Shown: in pieces, positions 26,706-64,000 of the stretch
Layout: each line of letters starts with the position of its first letter
Position numbering within the stretch: position 1 is the stretch's first letter
Assembly (NCBI GenBank): GCA_963760795.1
Contig: CAVXEP010000029.1
Location: 96,001 to 160,000 of the forward strand
Source of the DNA: an uncultured delta proteobacterium
GTDB lineage: Bacteria; Desulfobacterota; Binatia; UBA9968
Direction: 5' to 3'
DNA: 64,000 nucleotides
The notes under the pieces: model-generated
Databases searched by the model: none
Seen by the model: the letters and a program-made list of their open reading frames with translations, nothing else
Told to the model about the DNA's origin: nothing
Position numbers and translations under genes: made by a program

Positions 26706-27665
26706 CTATGCTGCGGAGCGTGACCGTGCGGCCTCCACTAACGGGCGGTATTTCTTGTTAAGTTCCATCCAATGGGCCGCGCGCTTATGTGCTTTGTCTA
26801 GCTCGGCTTCGGGGAACGTTACGAACGGAACTCGGGTCGGCCCGACTTTACAGTAGTCCGCGAATTCCGCCGGCCGCTTATTTCCCGCTCCCGGAACCGG
26901 CTTGCCAGCACCGACGCCACCCAAGTCTTCGATCACTTCCATCATCTTGGCCACGTCGCCTTTGCGGGCTTGCTCCAAGAGGTAGAGGATCGGCCAAGGT
27001 CCCATCCACACTTCTGTGGACCAGCAACCGGCGGCACCCATGGCGTAGTAGGGGTAGAGCTGCGTCTGATTGACGAACACGCTAATCTTTCCCCGGACAA
27101 TTTTCTGTAAATTCATGAATGCTTGAGTCGTGCGATGGCTGTCTTTCATGCCAATGATGTTTGACTTCTTAACCAATTCTCTGAATGCCGCCACTGGAAT
27201 CGTGAATTTATGATTGCCAGGGTTGTGATAAATTACGATGTTCAATGTCGGGAAAAGGTCGGCGATGTCATGATAGAACTTCACCGCGTCCTGGACATGC
27301 AAAGTTTCGTAATAAGGTACGCCTAGCAAAACACCTTCCGCTCCCAGATCCTTTACAAAGTTCATTTTCTGGATGACTTCGCGGGGATTGGGGCTGGTTA
27401 CACCAATAAACAGCGGCACGCGTTTTTTAACAGCATCGACGGTGGCAACGGCCAAGGTCTTAAATTCATCGAACAGTAAGTTGTAGCATTCGCCATAGGT
27501 ACCGGTGGTGGCGATATTGTTGACGCCGTCTTTGATGATCTTGTCGACGCCTTCTTTCAAATTATCCACCGCAATGGTTTGCGTGGCACGTAAATCGGTT
27601 GCATCCACGGTGGCGAAGGCGGGCATCATGCCCAATACGCCGTTGAACTCATTCGCTGTGATCAT
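26706..27665 (-). CDS. DHDPS/NAL-family hydratase-aldolase, NahE/PhdJ-like
   Basis: N-terminus like NahE (MP..AT.DA.D.R), GTYGEC, YHNP...KF and Schiff-base Lys in IGMKDS. Confidence 0.75.
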   Translation of the reverse strand: MITANEFNGVLGMMPAFATVDATDLRATQTIAVDNLKEGVDKIIKDGVNNIATTGTYGECYNLLFDEFKTLAVATVDAVKKRVPLFIGVTSPNPREVIQKMNFVKDLGAEGVLLGVPYYETLHVQDAVKFYHDIADLFPTLNIVIYHNPGNHKFTIPVAAFRELVKKSNIIGMKDSHRTTQAFMNLQKIVRGKISVFVNQTQLYPYYAMGAAGCWSTEVWMGPWPILYLLEQARKGDVAKMMEVIEDLGGVGAGKPVPGAGNKRPAEFADYCKVGPTRVPFVTFPEAELDKAHKRAAHWMELNKKYRPLVEAARSRSAA

Positions 27666-27899
27666 TGTATTACCTCCTGAGATTTATTGTAGATTTAGGG
27701 TCTTTGCGACGACACTCTTGTGAAGCCGCGCCCTAGTTTCTTTCCGCCTTGTTAACAGTTCTTCAAACAAATTGTCAAACGACCCTCGCTACCTGCTTTT
27801 CAATCTCTCTGGGGTTACTTGTCCGCAGCTCGCTTCGATTGTTTGATCCGTTCGATCTGATACCCCGCTGCTTGCGGTGGGTATTCGCAATGGAAAGAC

Positions 27900-27975
27900 T
27901 GGAGCCACCCGCCAGAATCGAACTGGCGACCTACTGATTACGAATCAGTTGCTCTACCAACTGAGCTAGGGTGGC
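27900..27975 (-). tRNA. tRNA-Thr(CGT)
   Basis: GCCACCCTAGCTCAGTTGGTAGAGCAACTGATTCGTAATCAGTAGGTCGCCAGTTCGATTCTGGCGGGTGGCTCCA: cloverleaf, anticodon CGT, encoded CCA. Confidence 0.97.
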
Positions 27976-27995
27976 TTATCTGTGAAATCAACAAC

Positions 27996-28312
27996 CTAAC
28001 CCTCATGCTTGGTGAGGGGAGAAACAGGTGCTGTGAATTGCGTTGTGAAATGATGGGCAATTTTCTCGACCGCTTCTGATTTATGATTTGGGCCCAAGTG
28101 CGCGTATCGTTGTAACATCTCAAGCTCTTTCCACCCCCAAGTTCCTGGATCGTTCGCATATCCACTCCAGCCACAGCTGATCTGCTGGCAAATGTATGGC
28201 GCAGAATATGGAGAGCAATATTGGATAATTTAGCATGCTTCCAAACAGTTTTAAACGCTGAGCGAATTCTCTCAAAGCGCGAGCTATCATGTATAAGAAA
28301 ACATGTTCCCAT
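27996..28312 (-). pseudogene. Tyrosine recombinase/integrase C-terminal remnant
   Basis: LHILRHTFAS...GVD.RTIQELGG.KSL, then after a frameshift MLQRYAHLGPNHKSEAVEKIA; N-terminal part missing. Confidence 0.85.
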
Positions 28313-28721
28313 CCAGCTGTTCGAGCCCAGGGTCGATGCACCGCCGAACTTGAGCTGTAAGATCGTGCTAATCCAGGCGTAGCGGCAAATCCGGGGTCCA
28401 AACTGCAGTCTGGCTAGACTAGATGCGTTAGTATTTTTCTGAGAGCGTTACTTGGAATTCAGACTACTTCTTTGTGTCTTTCAAGATTTCATTCAGAAGC
28501 TTGCGAATCGGTTCCATTTCACTCCACTCGGGACGGCTATCGATGTCCGTGTACTTTTCGCCTGGTTTGCGTCTGACATCGGGTATTTACCTATGAAAAA
28601 TCACCGGTTGAAACAAAAGAACCATCACGGTTCGACGACGAATCGATGTACCTCACAGCTGGCCGGTACAAGTGGATGGAATTCAGTTCGTCACGCCGAA
28701 TGCGCTTGCGCTCGCAAGTTC

Positions 28722-62294: not shown

Positions 62295-62327
62295 GAAGAC
62301 GGTGTATCCAACTGAAAGGAACCGCTC

Positions 62328-62912
62328 GTGAGCCCAGCAGCGGAAGAGAATTCTTCTCCAACGGATGTGACAAAAACCGGCAAGGCTGGAGTGCGCTACC
62401 GTGAGGAGGCGCTCGAGGCTTTTTACGACGGTTTCAAAGCGGCGGGAATCGACTTCGCGGCGTATCTGCCCGACAGCATGCTCGACGGCATTGAGCAACT
62501 AATGATCGAGCGCGGCGGTATTGAATGCTATCAGTGCTCGCGCGAGGATGAAGGCATCGCCATGGCGATGGGCGCATTTTTGGTCGGCAAACGGTCGGTG
62601 GCGCTCATGGAAGGGTCCGGCATCGGCATGTCAGGCTTGATTCTCGCCCGCGGGATTGTGCAGAAAACTCCGACGATGCTGGTCATCGGCCACAACAGCA
62701 CTCTCGGTGAGCGTTTCGATTATCATGGCGCGACTCGATTGGTGGCGGAACCTGTGTTGCGCGCCCTCGACATTCCCTATCATGTGCTCTTTGACCCCGC
62801 CGACATCCGCAAGGTGATCGTCGAGGCCCAAGGAACCATCGAAGGGCAACGCATTCCGGTCGGCATTTTGGTGCCGAGCCATGTCATTCGCGAAAGCGGA
62901 GTCAGCCGATGA
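62328..62912 (+). CDS. ThDP-dependent decarboxylase alpha subunit (ComD/phosphonopyruvate decarboxylase N-half-like)
   Basis: YLPDS.L, REDEGIA.A.GA.L.GK..V.LM..SG.G. Confidence 0.8.
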   Translation: MSPAAEENSSPTDVTKTGKAGVRYREEALEAFYDGFKAAGIDFAAYLPDSMLDGIEQLMIERGGIECYQCSREDEGIAMAMGAFLVGKRSVALMEGSGIGMSGLILARGIVQKTPTMLVIGHNSTLGERFDYHGATRLVAEPVLRALDIPYHVLFDPADIRKVIVEAQGTIEGQRIPVGILVPSHVIRESGVSR

Positions 62913-63502
62913 AGCGGACCGATGTCCTGCAACACATCGCTGCACTGCGCAACGGCGATCCGATGATCATCAGCCCCGGTTTGGCGAACTACCCGGTCGC
63001 CCAAGCGAAGGATGAACCGCTGACTATTTATAACATGGACATGCCCTACACTACGCCCATGGCTCTGGGCATGGCCCTGGGTTGGCCGGAGCGCAAAGTG
63101 ATCTCCATCGAGGGCGATGGATCGATGCTCGCGGGACCCGGCGTGTTGTCGACGATCGCTCGTTACCGGCCCAAGAACCTGCTGATGTTTATTTTCGACA
63201 ACGGCGCGTACTTGACCACGGGCTCGGGTAAAGCTCCGACGGCAACGGTGTTCGGTACCGACATCGAACAGTTGGCACGGGCGGCGGGCATGGAAAATTG
63301 CCGAACTGTGAGCGAGCTGGACGCGGCGAAGCTCGCGGTCAACGCAGCCTTTGCGAAACCAGGCCCATGGTTGGTCGTCGCCAAAGTCGACAAGCAGGAC
63401 CGTCCGGTGGAGCGGGGGCAACATGCGTTGCCTATGTATGTTTACGAGGCGGGTCTGGTCTTTCATCGCACCGCGTTGCAAGCAAGGTCGGCTACGACGT
63501 AA
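62909..63502 (+). CDS. ThDP-dependent decarboxylase beta subunit (ComE-like)
   Basis: ALG.ALG.P, GDGS.L...DNG.Y..TG ThDP-binding motif; ATGA overlap with the alpha subunit. Confidence 0.82.
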   Translation: MKRTDVLQHIAALRNGDPMIISPGLANYPVAQAKDEPLTIYNMDMPYTTPMALGMALGWPERKVISIEGDGSMLAGPGVLSTIARYRPKNLLMFIFDNGAYLTTGSGKAPTATVFGTDIEQLARAAGMENCRTVSELDAAKLAVNAAFAKPGPWLVVAKVDKQDRPVERGQHALPMYVYEAGLVFHRTALQARSATT

Positions 63503-63532
63503 CCAGAAGTTTCAGCGAAAGGGGATTACCAG

Positions 63533-64000
63533 ATGTTCCAGTCCAGCATTCGTCGCATCATTCTGTCGGCGGTGATGATGTCGATCGGCGCCGCGCCGGC
63601 CGAAAGCCAAGAGTGGAAAACCAAGTGGGATAAAGTCCTGGCGGAGGCCAAGAAAGAGGGTAAGGTCGCGGTCGCTGGACCTCCGGGGAGCGCCTATCGC
63701 GAGGTGATGCGCGGCTTTGAAAAAAAATATCCGGAAATCACGCTGGAGTTTCAAAGTTTTACGCCGACTAACTTCACCGCGCGCTTCGCCAAAGAACGTC
63801 AAGCGGGACAATTTCTTTGGGATCTCTATGTAACCGGGCCCACCGGATTCGATATCGCCGCGAAGAAGGCGGGAGATCTGGACCCGATCCGGCCACTGTT
63901 TATTCTTCCCGAAGTGCTCGACGAAAAAGTCTGGTTCGGCGGCTTCGACAAAGCGTTCTTGGATTCCGAAAAAAAATACATCTTCGCATTCCAAGCGCAA
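63533..64000 (+). CDS. ABC transporter solute-binding protein (partial, runs off the window)
   Basis: Own translation MFQSSIRRIILSAVMMSIGAAPAESQEWKTKWDKVLAEAKKEGKVAVAGPPG...; not in the ORF track. Confidence 0.85.
   Translation, partial: MFQSSIRRIILSAVMMSIGAAPAESQEWKTKWDKVLAEAKKEGKVAVAGPPGSAYREVMRGFEKKYPEITLEFQSFTPTNFTARFAKERQAGQFLWDLYVTGPTGFDIAAKKAGDLDPIRPLFILPEVLDEKVWFGGFDKAFLDSEKKYIFAFQAQ

Follow-up and report, generated by a model that had tools for sequence, protein, structure and literature searches.

Analysis of a 64,000-nt window from an uncultured bacterium of the Binatia (contig CAVXEP010000029.1, positions 96,001 to 160,000, without any N) revealed a long cluster of candidate genes for the catabolism of aromatic or heteroaromatic acids, among them a UbiD-family decarboxylase. 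The window here means that whole stretch. Pfam and NCBIfam scans of the open reading frames (ORFs) identified 29 consecutive genes (30263-64000), every one of them assignable: 20 enzyme genes, eight ATP-binding cassette (ABC) transport genes and one gene for a TAXI-fold protein. These genes are arranged in two divergent arms flanking a 216-bp gap (55789-56006), with the left arm running on the minus strand from 55789 to 30263 and the right arm on the plus strand from 56006 past 64000. Twenty-four of the 28 junctions are shorter than 100 bp or overlapping, and 28 of the 29 genes are intact long ORFs with conserved motifs. The cluster is real and not a chance arrangement. An alpha/beta hydrolase gene (hydA) and a NahE/PhdJ-like aldolase gene lie to the left of the run. 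The gene content listed in a preliminary description of this DNA was recovered in full by these scans.

Gene content of the two arms

The predicted UbiD-family (prenylated flavin mononucleotide, prFMN) decarboxylase is encoded in the left arm (41691-43328, minus strand) and has UbiD_N, UbiD and UbiD_C domains above the Pfam cut-offs, with a TIGR00148 score of 197 bits that is below the cut-off of 245. Among solved structures it comes closest to HmfF (E 5.5e-45, 28-30% identity), with a target-normalised TM-score of 0.83-0.85 for a structure model whose pLDDT is 77.9. Residues R176, E270 and E277, which are invariant in an alignment of 16 sequences, presumably correspond to R173, E277 and E282 of Fdc1. 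Beyond the Pfam UbiD_C domain, the protein carries a C-terminal extension of ~100 aa (residues 439-545) that is conserved in the subfamily; W478, L484, P492, G499, W501, A509, G515, Y517 and G521 are invariant in the same 16 sequences, and the model predicts, with moderate confidence, three helices at 503-544.

Two phthalate-family Rieske oxygenase alpha subunits with Rieske and LigXa_C domains, RieP1 (36763-38034, minus strand) and RieP2 (39234-40523, minus strand), are 62% identical to each other. The best match in the Protein Data Bank (PDB) for RieP1 is 9ina (E 3.7e-65), identified as isophthalate dioxygenase (IPDO) in the available part of PMC12445078, and that for RieP2 is 7fjl (E 3e-60), identified as the phthalate dioxygenase (PDO) PDO_KF1 in the available part of PMC8649396. 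The same portions of these sources assign carboxylate binding in PDO to R207 and R244, together with S179 and S182 (PMC8649396), and in IPDO to R234, the equivalent of PDO R244, and H257 (PMC12445078). PDO R207 is retained in both window proteins (R204 in RieP2, R205 in RieP1), the IPDO R234 equivalent is Tyr, and the alignment is gapped in the loop of IPDO H257. Because RieP1 and RieP2 have Tyr at the position of R244 and Leu at those of S179 and S182 (Y240 and L177 in RieP2 for the first two), neither phthalate nor isophthalate is a likely substrate of these proteins. Having lost one of the two carboxylate-binding arginines, they were rejected as PDO or IPDO orthologues and are regarded as family members only.

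A third alpha subunit of the left arm, RieX (52244-53581, minus strand), is divergent: Pfam recognises only its Rieske domain, its N-terminal part matches CarAa at E 5e-28, and Atlas places it at 0.97 with Aromatic_hydrox/VanA_C clusters. RieX lies inside the ABC-transporter run, between the ATPase and permease genes, and its start is uncertain because its ORF overlaps the ATPase gene by 59 nt. With the Aromatic_hydrox-type oxygenase of the right arm, these proteins bear out the earlier count of four Rieske alpha subunits from two subfamilies.

The gene for a putative Gfo/Idh/MocA-family cis-dihydrodiol dehydrogenase (35521-36751, minus strand; Pfam GFO_IDH_MocA) consists of two ORFs (36095-36751 and 35521-36186) that result from a 1-nt frameshift at ~36177, with one extra base following the codons for ...LLGGG. 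The dihydrodiol dehydrogenase claimed in the preliminary description is thus present, but in a split gene. Both halves can be aligned over their full length with a single 410-aa Binatia ORF (L006:15385-16617; numbers with the prefix L denote related loci), to which they are 71% and 59% identical. Since the housekeeping gene dnaJ is also split in this window, a sequencing indel is as likely as a real lesion. Homologues 46-51% identical adjoin ring-hydroxylating oxygenases in two loci of cultured bacteria (L075 and L076), and it is this conserved gene context that points to a probable diol dehydrogenase.

The left arm also encodes a class III (LigB-type) extradiol dioxygenase, LigB1 (33362-34321, minus strand; Pfam LigB, 81 bits), which is 44% identical to the extradiol dioxygenase beside the Gfo gene in L075 and 48-53% identical to proteins in L003 and L005. 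Downstream steps are represented by mhpE, encoding 4-hydroxy-2-oxovalerate aldolase (MhpE/DmpG; 31284-32357, minus strand; TIGR03217, 508 bits against a cut-off of 286; HMGL-like and DmpG_comm domains, the latter at 104 bits), and mhpF, encoding acetylating acetaldehyde dehydrogenase (MhpF/DmpF; 32309-33232, minus strand; TIGR03215, 435 bits against 282), whose ORFs overlap. Because both exceed equivalog cut-offs, the previously proposed end point of pyruvate and acetyl-CoA holds. A 2-oxopent-4-enoate hydratase-like protein of the MhpD/DmpE family is encoded by mhpD (38052-38843, minus strand; FAA_hydrolase domain); it scores 312 bits with TIGR03220, where the cut-off is 409, and similarly with the HpaH and DmpH models, giving family-level membership only.

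Meta-cleavage-product (C-C) hydrolases carry their Ser nucleophile in a GNSxG elbow. Two putative enzymes of this type are encoded on the minus strand, hydB (30263-31120; GNSQG; HsaD 148 and BphD 123 bits) and hydC (49480-50352; GNSMG; HsaD 190 and BphD 150 bits), all four scores falling below the cut-offs, and hydB is 66-67% identical to its homologues in L006 and L007. To the left of the run, hydA (28805-29689, plus strand; GESQG elbow; Abhydrolase_1; HsaD 121 bits, below the cut-off) encodes an alpha/beta hydrolase that is 69% identical to an ORF adjoining the hydB homologue in L006 and L007, relative to which its orientation is inverted, and 39% identical to the hydrolase of L075. The hydrolase of the right arm, hydD (57903-58775, plus strand; GNSMG), is the most BphD/HsaD-like of the four, with HsaD at 272 bits (cut-off 400) and BphD at 242 bits (cut-off 462).

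A three-subunit molybdenum (Mo) hydroxylase of the xanthine dehydrogenase/carbon monoxide dehydrogenase (XDH/CODH) family is encoded in the left arm, with all expected domains above the Pfam cut-offs: a [2Fe-2S] small subunit (48956-49477, minus strand; Fer2 and Fer2_2), a large molybdopterin subunit (46620-49034, minus strand, likely start near 48959; Ald_Xan_dh_C and MoCoBD_1/2) and an FAD subunit (45640-46623, minus strand; FAD_binding_5 and CO_deh_flav_C). PDB matches of the large subunit are the alpha subunit of 4-hydroxybenzoyl-CoA reductase (4-HBCR; 1rm6_A) at E 1.3e-96, Qor at 5.6e-67 and PaoC at 3.6e-60, and the FAD subunit contains a Cys-rich, [4Fe-4S]-type insert, across which it aligns with 5y6q_B and 4-HBCR beta (1rm6_B). 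We infer a role as ring hydroxylase or aldehyde oxidoreductase. Identity with 4-hydroxybenzoyl-CoA reductase HcrABC was rejected, as the scores of 458, 177 and 180 bits compare with equivalog cut-offs of 995, 405 and 258; it is further disfavoured by the absence of a CoA (AMP-binding) ligase from the window and from 92 neighbouring ORFs of 12 loci. Genes of this kind may instead encode hydroxylases that are independent of CoA and operate in an aerobic setting.

The right arm includes an M20-fold metallohydrolase-like protein (58788-60161, plus strand; Atlas 0.98 to M20 clusters), for which the NCBIfam ArgE/DapE score of 72 bits is below the cut-off and no Pfam match was obtained at 1e-5. It is followed by a CarAa/OxoO-like homotrimeric Rieske oxygenase (60158-61273, plus strand) with Rieske and Aromatic_hydrox (148 bits) domains, which matches CarAa at E 1e-73 and OxoO at E 5.5e-48, is 36.9% identical to CarAa of pCAR1 and has relatives 79-83% identical that are named Ca. 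Binatia. A second class III extradiol dioxygenase, LigB2 (61368-62294, plus strand; Pfam LigB, 91 bits), is 32% identical to LigB1 and has LigB as its best solved relative, at only E 8e-11; both LigB proteins are far under the NCBIfam class III extradiol cut-offs. Two overlapping genes (62328-62912 and 62909-63502, plus strand) encode a thiamine diphosphate (ThDP) decarboxylase-like pair of 194 and 197 aa with a TPP_enzyme_C domain. The pair scores 59 bits (alpha; cut-off 148) and 97 bits (beta; cut-off 222) with the sulfopyruvate decarboxylase models, and shows, as a comparison of architecture only, the separate-subunit arrangement of ComDE, Ppd and LumK/LumL.

The transport genes encode five solute-binding proteins (SBPs) of the SBP_bac_8 family with signal peptides, two fused permeases and one ATPase. 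SBP1 (34368-35450), SBP2 (40536-41678), SBP3 (43348-44601) and SBP4 (54692-55789), the first gene of the left arm, lie on the minus strand, and SBP5 (63533-64000, plus strand), which is cut by the window end, has a signal peptide and is 30-40% identical to the other SBPs. UbiD is flanked by SBP2 and SBP3, whose mutual identity of 57%, compared with 26-40% for other SBP pairs, points to a probable local duplication. The ATPase (53523-54662, minus strand; ABC_tran) is PhnT2/PotA-like; the fused two-domain permease perm1 (50376-52085, minus strand), with two BPD_transp_1 stretches, is PhnU2-like (145 bits); and perm2 (56006-57844, plus strand), the first gene of the right arm, is 35% identical to perm1. 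Paralogues within the cluster thus comprise two PDO-like Rieske proteins, two LigB proteins, four hydrolases and five SBPs. A scan of 44.1-64 kb found 12 promoter-like sites (8.6 expected) and 31 terminator-like sites (23.2 expected); it was not above chance overall and is not informative, including for a promoter-like site at 55929-55900, ahead of SBP4.

The TAXI-fold protein (44642-45625, minus strand; Pfam NMT1_3) had been counted among the uptake components, an assignment that is doubtful. Its TIGR02122 score of 71.7 bits is below the cut-off of 84.35; it has no signal peptide, its N-terminus being polar with no longer ORF possible; and no TRAP membrane genes (a DctQM partner) are present in the window. 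These three points speak against a TAXI-TRAP solute receptor, and the protein could instead be an enzyme or a binding protein of the cytoplasm. Polar N-termini are also found in its homologues L025:17984-19009 and L030:20484-21467. In the window, L025 and L030, such a signal-less TAXI-fold protein recurs near Mo-hydroxylase and UbiD genes.

Conservation across UbiD-anchored loci

Comparison with related genomes was based on 73 UbiD-anchored loci, obtained by searching the 16-sequence UbiD alignment against species-representative genomes and taking up to 10 kb on each side. They comprise 27 loci of Ca. Binatia, 18 of 'Deltaproteobacteria' metagenome-assembled genomes, 17 of Chloroflexota type, six of Syntrophobacter- or Thermodesulfobacteriota type and five others. 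A locus was scored for a window gene if the best match of one of its ORFs extended over half or more of the window protein at E < 1e-15. Given the 10-kb reach, window genes left of ~31.7 kb and right of ~53.3 kb fall outside this view even if syntenic.

The widely conserved core is UbiD plus an SBP, the latter found in 52 of the 73 loci and encoded within 300 bp of UbiD on the same strand in 34. Lower counts were obtained for the fused permease (28 of 73), the ATPase (18), the PDO-like Rieske protein (16), the Mo large subunit (12), Gfo (10), the ThDP beta subunit (four) and the TAXI-fold protein (four). L001, L006 and L007 retain the gene order UbiD-SBP-Rieske-Gfo, and L003 retains UbiD-Rieske-Gfo-LigB; L005 joins LigB, Gfo, SBP, UbiD, a permease, a hydrolase, an ATPase, mhpD, mhpF, mhpE and a Rieske gene. 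At least two UbiD-family ORFs occur in 48 of the 73 loci and at least three in 22. In Binatia loci such as L014, L017 and L025, arrays of up to five UbiD paralogues in ~21 kb are accompanied by up to six SBPs, and recurrent neighbours are genes for a ~370-aa bicupin, Amidohydro_2 proteins, luciferase-like monooxygenases, TetR (CecR_C) regulators and TctA.

The partners of UbiD differ between its clades. In a tree of 79 rows, made up of the window UbiD and 78 ORFs with a minimum of 430 aa, 33% identity and 400 aligned residues (paralogues of 25-31% identity and fragments, L001 among them, are omitted), the window UbiD falls within a 22-row clade with a Shimodaira-Hasegawa-like approximate likelihood ratio (SH-aLRT) support of 100. 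A PDO-like Rieske gene, a Gfo gene or both lie within 6 kb of ten of the 21 other rows in this clade, and none of the 21 has a Mo homologue at least 55% identical; six of the seven Mo-linked UbiD rows are placed in a separate 44-row clade. The Mo large subunit is 60-65% identical, and the Mo subunits 60-67%, in eight Binatia-type loci in which the Mo genes adjoin UbiDs just 42-45% identical to that of the window. The window is a mosaic, since its Rieske/Gfo and Mo modules are each tied to a different UbiD clade, and it brings together two modules that elsewhere stay separate.

Close relatives of the cluster proteins (76-88% identical) exist in other metagenomes. A UbiD homologue (P0005, 82%) and a CarAa-like homologue (P0255, 76%) share the same listed longest sequence size, 35,230 bp, an indirect hint that both arms may co-occur in a relative. 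Among plasmid relatives of the three proteins searched, none reaches 60% identity.

Interpretation of the cluster and its alternatives

We lean, by no wide measure, towards reading the cluster as a two-armed, oxygen-dependent catabolic supercluster for aromatic or heteroaromatic acids, a mosaic of modules rather than one fixed pathway. Every substrate in this scheme is inferred, and so are the sequence of the reactions, what the Mo enzyme does and the stage at which UbiD acts. Anionic aromatic or heteroaromatic acids would be caught by the five paralogous SBPs and imported by one ABC set of two permeases and one ATPase. In a first route (34.3-44.6 kb), RieP1 or RieP2 would turn a carboxy-arene into a cis-dihydrodiol, the Gfo/Idh/MocA dehydrogenase would re-aromatise this to a diol, and UbiD, with prFMN, would remove a carboxyl group at some point in the step order; LigB1 would then open the ring in extradiol fashion, and hydB, hydC or hydA would release 2-hydroxypenta-2,4-dienoate (HPD). 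In a second route, formed by the right arm and possibly the Mo enzyme, amide and alpha-keto-like carboxyl groups may be trimmed by the M20-fold hydrolase and the ThDP pair, and the XDH-family Mo enzyme may use water to hydroxylate a carbon that is electron-poor or heterocyclic. The ring would be attacked by the CarAa-like oxygenase and cleaved by LigB2, with hydD hydrolysing the product. Both routes would finish with MhpD, MhpE and MhpF, which would turn the dienoate into pyruvate and acetyl-CoA. The reductase, ferredoxin, UbiX and regulators would have to come from genes outside the window.

Several results weigh against this scheme. The Pfam and NCBIfam scans found no reductase, ferredoxin, Rieske beta subunit, UbiX, CoA ligase or regulator in the window, and the 92 additional ORFs scanned in 12 related loci, of which four have Mo genes, likewise included no reductase, ferredoxin, UbiX or CoA ligase. 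Within 10 kb of UbiD, none of the 73 loci holds the whole gene set; LigB is found in six and the hydrolases in five, mhpD, mhpE and mhpF in one each (L005), and the CarAa-like oxygenase in one (L009). Because the Mo-linked UbiDs fall in another clade, as described above, the Mo enzyme may be functionally unrelated to the UbiD that it adjoins. To these points are added the split Gfo gene, the replaced carboxylate ligands of RieP1 and RieP2, the nearest solved structures of SBP2, which are Fe3+-binding proteins at only E 3e-9, the low overall identity to all characterised enzymes, and the fact that the likeness to a published heterocycle pathway described below is drawn from enzyme classes.

The alternative that survives best, which we nevertheless consider unlikely, is a single linear funnel whose modules all work one after another on one family of fused or N-heterocyclic aromatic carboxylates, for instance those of quinoxaline, alloxazine, quinoline or carbazole. 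All genes are packed in the two divergent arms, a CarAa/OxoO-like oxygenase and an XDH-family Mo enzyme are present, and the enzyme classes match those of the reconstituted lumichrome/quinoxaline (lum) pathway (PMC12746152), whose intermediates, in the available part of that paper, are quinoxaline dicarboxylic acids. However, the modules lack co-conservation and belong with separate UbiD clades, the paralogue pairs suggest parallel routes, the Mo FAD subunit has a PaoB/HcrB-type Cys insert and the large subunit is nearer to 4-HBCR alpha than to Qor, and the lum operon itself, with a cytochrome P450, a single-chain xanthine oxidase (XO), an alpha-beta Rieske enzyme and no UbiD, can be likened by enzyme class only. 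The preliminary claim of a funnel is not upheld in the sense of one integrated, co-conserved 35-kb unit. Its companion, that the substrates are carboxylated and possibly N-heterocyclic, gains a published analogue in the lum pathway (PMC12746152), but the substrate, as had been conceded then, can still not be read from the sequence.

A pathway for benzene dicarboxylates only, leading from a phthalate-like isomer by dioxygenation, dehydrogenation and decarboxylation to a catechol or protocatechuate and then to meta-cleavage, with the remaining genes as unrelated neighbours, is very unlikely. It would fit the best solved relatives of RieP1 and RieP2, which are isophthalate and phthalate dioxygenases, the occurrence of Gfo homologues in iph/oph-like operons (L076), and the core of Gfo, LigB-type dioxygenase, hydrolase and mhpDFE genes in L075. 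The carboxylate-binding R244/R234, S179 and S182 are not kept, however, the decarboxylase is of a different type, and the right-arm and Mo genes are packed gap-free into the same arms.

Somewhat less probable again is the catabolism of a lignin-derived carboxylated biaryl resembling 5,5'-dehydrodivanillate (DDVA), with a LigXa-type Rieske enzyme, a LigZ-like dioxygenase, a C-C hydrolase and a decarboxylase acting in turn. RieP1 and RieP2 carry LigXa_C, LigB-type dioxygenases and BphD/HsaD-like hydrolases are present, and a UbiD has been proposed for decarboxylation of 5-carboxyvanillate in Paenibacillus, according to the available part of PMC12673573. LigXa_C is nonetheless a general phthalate-family domain, LigY/LigW-type amidohydrolases and LigJ or LigK genes are lacking, and the lower pathway is the non-carboxylated HPD route.

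The left flank of the cluster carries traces of mobile elements. The leftmost 23 kb of the window carry housekeeping genes, encoding Lon, DnaK/DnaJ/GrpE, RecO, pyruvate phosphate dikinase, type IV pilus proteins, ThiL and LarB. RecO places the host in Ca. Binatia: besides relatives of 95-98% identity, the five matches that bear an organism name, among the 120 matches listed, all belong to Ca. Binatia (61-66% identity). Between these and the cluster lies a mobile-element scar (23534-28312) with a GC content of 0.50, compared with 0.56-0.59 across the cluster. It contains an IS481-like transposase remnant (24708-25349; 52 bits, below the model cut-off), a HEPN protein gene (26016-26435), a tRNA-Thr (CGT) gene (27900-27975, minus strand; ARAGORN; Rfam RF00005, 70.9 bits) and a truncated, out-of-frame C-terminal remnant of a tyrosine integrase (27996-28312, minus strand; Pfam Phage_integrase), which covers only positions 109-159 of the 172 in the profile and has its final catalytic stretch in a different frame. 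No att-like repeats of the tRNA-Thr region (words of at least 13 nt) were found elsewhere in the window, and an Rfam scan of the window returned tRNA only, without a riboswitch or leader.

The same zone holds the NahE/PhdJ-like hydratase-aldolase gene (26706-27665, minus strand; DHDPS fold, Pfam DHDPS). Its best PDB matches are PhdJ (6dan, E 3.7e-39) and NahE (9frt/6dao), over a range of 4e-39 to 2e-36, with the next entries, of YagE/DapA type, reaching only E 3e-18. The NahE-like aldolase of the preliminary description is correct in so far as PhdJ and NahE are the closest solved relatives, but the gene stands outside the packed arms. Because the tRNA-Thr gene and the integrase remnant intervene, and because related loci offer no good counterpart (only 24%-identical matches, in two of 73), its membership of the cluster is doubtful.

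Two further observations concern the housekeeping region. The dnaJ gene is present as two ORFs (6631-7826, minus strand), one for the J domain (7368-7826) and one for the zinc-finger and C-terminal domains (6631-7371); taken with the frameshift in the Gfo gene, the split suggests indel errors in the sequence. A 683-aa protein (17365-19416, plus strand), encoded between pilC and a pilin gene, combines a PilS-like domain of six transmembrane segments with PAS, sigma-54 AAA+ and HTH_8 domains, lacks histidine-kinase and receiver domains, and looks like a one-component PilS/PilR-type fusion.

The least probable alternative, a decaying store of catabolic paralogues gathered at a recombination hot spot and no longer working as a pathway, would account for the Gfo frameshift, the integrase remnant, tRNA-Thr and IS481-like remnant directly to the left, the inverted hydA and the lack of redox partners and regulators in the window, but it is countered by the intact state of 28 of the 29 genes, the split dnaJ, which points to sequence errors, and the 76-88% identical relatives in other metagenomes.

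Binatia are widespread uncultured bacteria of soils and sediments, and a genome analysis of the group by Murphy et al. in 2021 reportedly stressed methylotrophy and alkane use. Full-text literature searches returned no paper joining Binatia with UbiD, and, among the matches listed, nothing relevant joining UbiD with phthalate dioxygenase and dihydrodiol dehydrogenase or on decarboxylases in the biodegradation of benzenepolycarboxylic acids. A wider and distinctly speculative reading is that Binatia and some Chloroflexota harbor a large undescribed family of binding-protein-coupled UbiD cassettes that, with Mo, Rieske and ring-cleaving partners, strip carboxyl groups from poly-carboxylated aromatic compounds, the window being one assembly wired to a meta-cleavage end. 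On that speculative reading, and as tentatively, candidate targets would be the benzene-polycarboxylic acids of pyrogenic or humic carbon, or heterocyclic di-acids. Should aromatic or heterocyclic acids indeed be the substrates of the SBP-UbiD cassettes and of the oxidative enzymes that accompany them, these genes would offer many so far unexploited prFMN decarboxylases, Mo hydroxylases and binding proteins, with relevance to recalcitrant carboxylated aromatic carbon and to biocatalysis.

Comparison with known systems

The cluster neither matches a published pathway nor is categorically new. The whole set has no published counterpart, as the preliminary description of an unrecognised combination implied, but homologous cores occur in cultured bacteria (L075 and L076). 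It had also been said that the modules are known from separate pathways, and this is confirmed by the IPDO and PDO matches, the CarAa identity and the XDH-family Mo enzyme.

The Rieske/Gfo module most resembles the oph/pht and iph operons (PDO_KF1 and IPDO_KF1 of Comamonas testosteroni), with which it shares a related Rieske oxygenase of the alpha-only type (same family, E 1e-60 to 1e-65), a Gfo/Idh/MocA cis-diol dehydrogenase, a decarboxylation step and binding-protein-dependent uptake. It differs in its UbiD decarboxylase, in the absence of a PDR reductase from the cluster, in the Tyr, Leu and Leu at the R244 (IPDO R234), S179 and S182 positions, in uptake by ABC/SBP_bac_8 rather than tripartite tricarboxylate transporter (TTT) proteins, and in a ring-opening enzyme of LigB type, after which a hydrolase and MhpDEF act.

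For the right arm and the Mo enzyme, the closest published logic appears, by analogy, to be that of the lum pathway for riboflavin and lumichrome in Nocardioides simplex, which has been reconstituted (PMC12746152). There, metallohydrolases open the pyrimidine ring; LumK/LumL, a two-subunit ThDP enzyme (20 + 23 kDa) of a kind that the authors call rare, removes the carboxyl group of a quinoxaline-2-carboxylate; the heterocycle is hydroxylated by an enzyme of XO type and opened to a catechol by a Rieske dioxygenase; and an extradiol dioxygenase cleaves the catechol (PMC12746152). In the available part of that paper, the substrates and intermediates are fused N-heterocyclic di-acids, namely quinoxaline dicarboxylic acids (PMC12746152). 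Compared by enzyme class, the two systems share a ThDP pair (194 and 197 aa in the window), an XO-family hydroxylase, a Rieske enzyme, an extradiol dioxygenase, metallohydrolases and transport genes. In contrast to the window, LumJ consists of one chain of 140 kDa, the Rieske enzyme LumCD has alpha and beta subunits and its own ferredoxin and reductase, and the lum operon has a P450, lacks UbiD and ends in pyruvate and acetoacetate.

Other characterised systems share single modules. The car operon of pCAR1 likewise has a CarAa oxygenase (36.9% identity), a LigB-family dioxygenase, a meta-cleavage-product hydrolase and HPD lower-pathway genes, but the window lacks the CarBa small subunit and CarAc/CarAd, has M20 and ThDP genes interposed and shows low identity. 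The hmf furan pathway provides the nearest solved UbiD, HmfF, and a nearby three-subunit Mo enzyme (HmfABC) as counterpart; the window differs in lacking a CoA ligase and UbiX, in an identity of 28-30% and in the additional ~100-aa C-terminal extension of its UbiD. HcrABC and PaoABC share with the window enzyme the best solved large-subunit match (1rm6_A) and the Cys-rich FAD-subunit insert, common to 1rm6_B, PaoB and 5y6q_B, whereas the window scores are far below the Hcr cut-offs, a CoA ligase is absent from the window and from the ORFs scanned in four Mo-bearing loci, and the neighbours are O2-dependent enzymes.

Among clusters of cultured bacteria, the L076 locus, on an Acidovorax plasmid, has an iph/oph-like set with a Rieske protein 33-34% identical to RieP1 and RieP2, a PDR/VanB reductase, Gfo (46%) and TTT binding proteins. 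On a Neorhizobium petrolearium plasmid (L074), a UbiD of 33.5% identity (tblastn) lies between two XDH-family enzymes, together with UbiX and a ThDP enzyme, with Mo subunits only 26-41% identical to those of the window; an SBP inside the Mo operon was considered as a relative of the TAXI-fold protein and found to be unrelated. To our knowledge, there is no biochemical work on the L074 or L075 clusters. The closest relationship is seen in L075, on a Mycolicibacterium rufum plasmid (40192-54755), where one block contains homologues of mhpD (41%), mhpF (53%), mhpE (48%), hydA (39%), Gfo (50%) and LigB1 (44%). This locus differs in having an alpha-beta oxygenase and, in place of UbiD, a gene of the class II aldolase/adducin family, which we take to be a decarboxylase family. 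The 30-39 kb segment of the window thus has a homologous counterpart in L075, apparently unstudied, and these six homologous genes in a cultured organism are a possible experimental stand-in for that segment.

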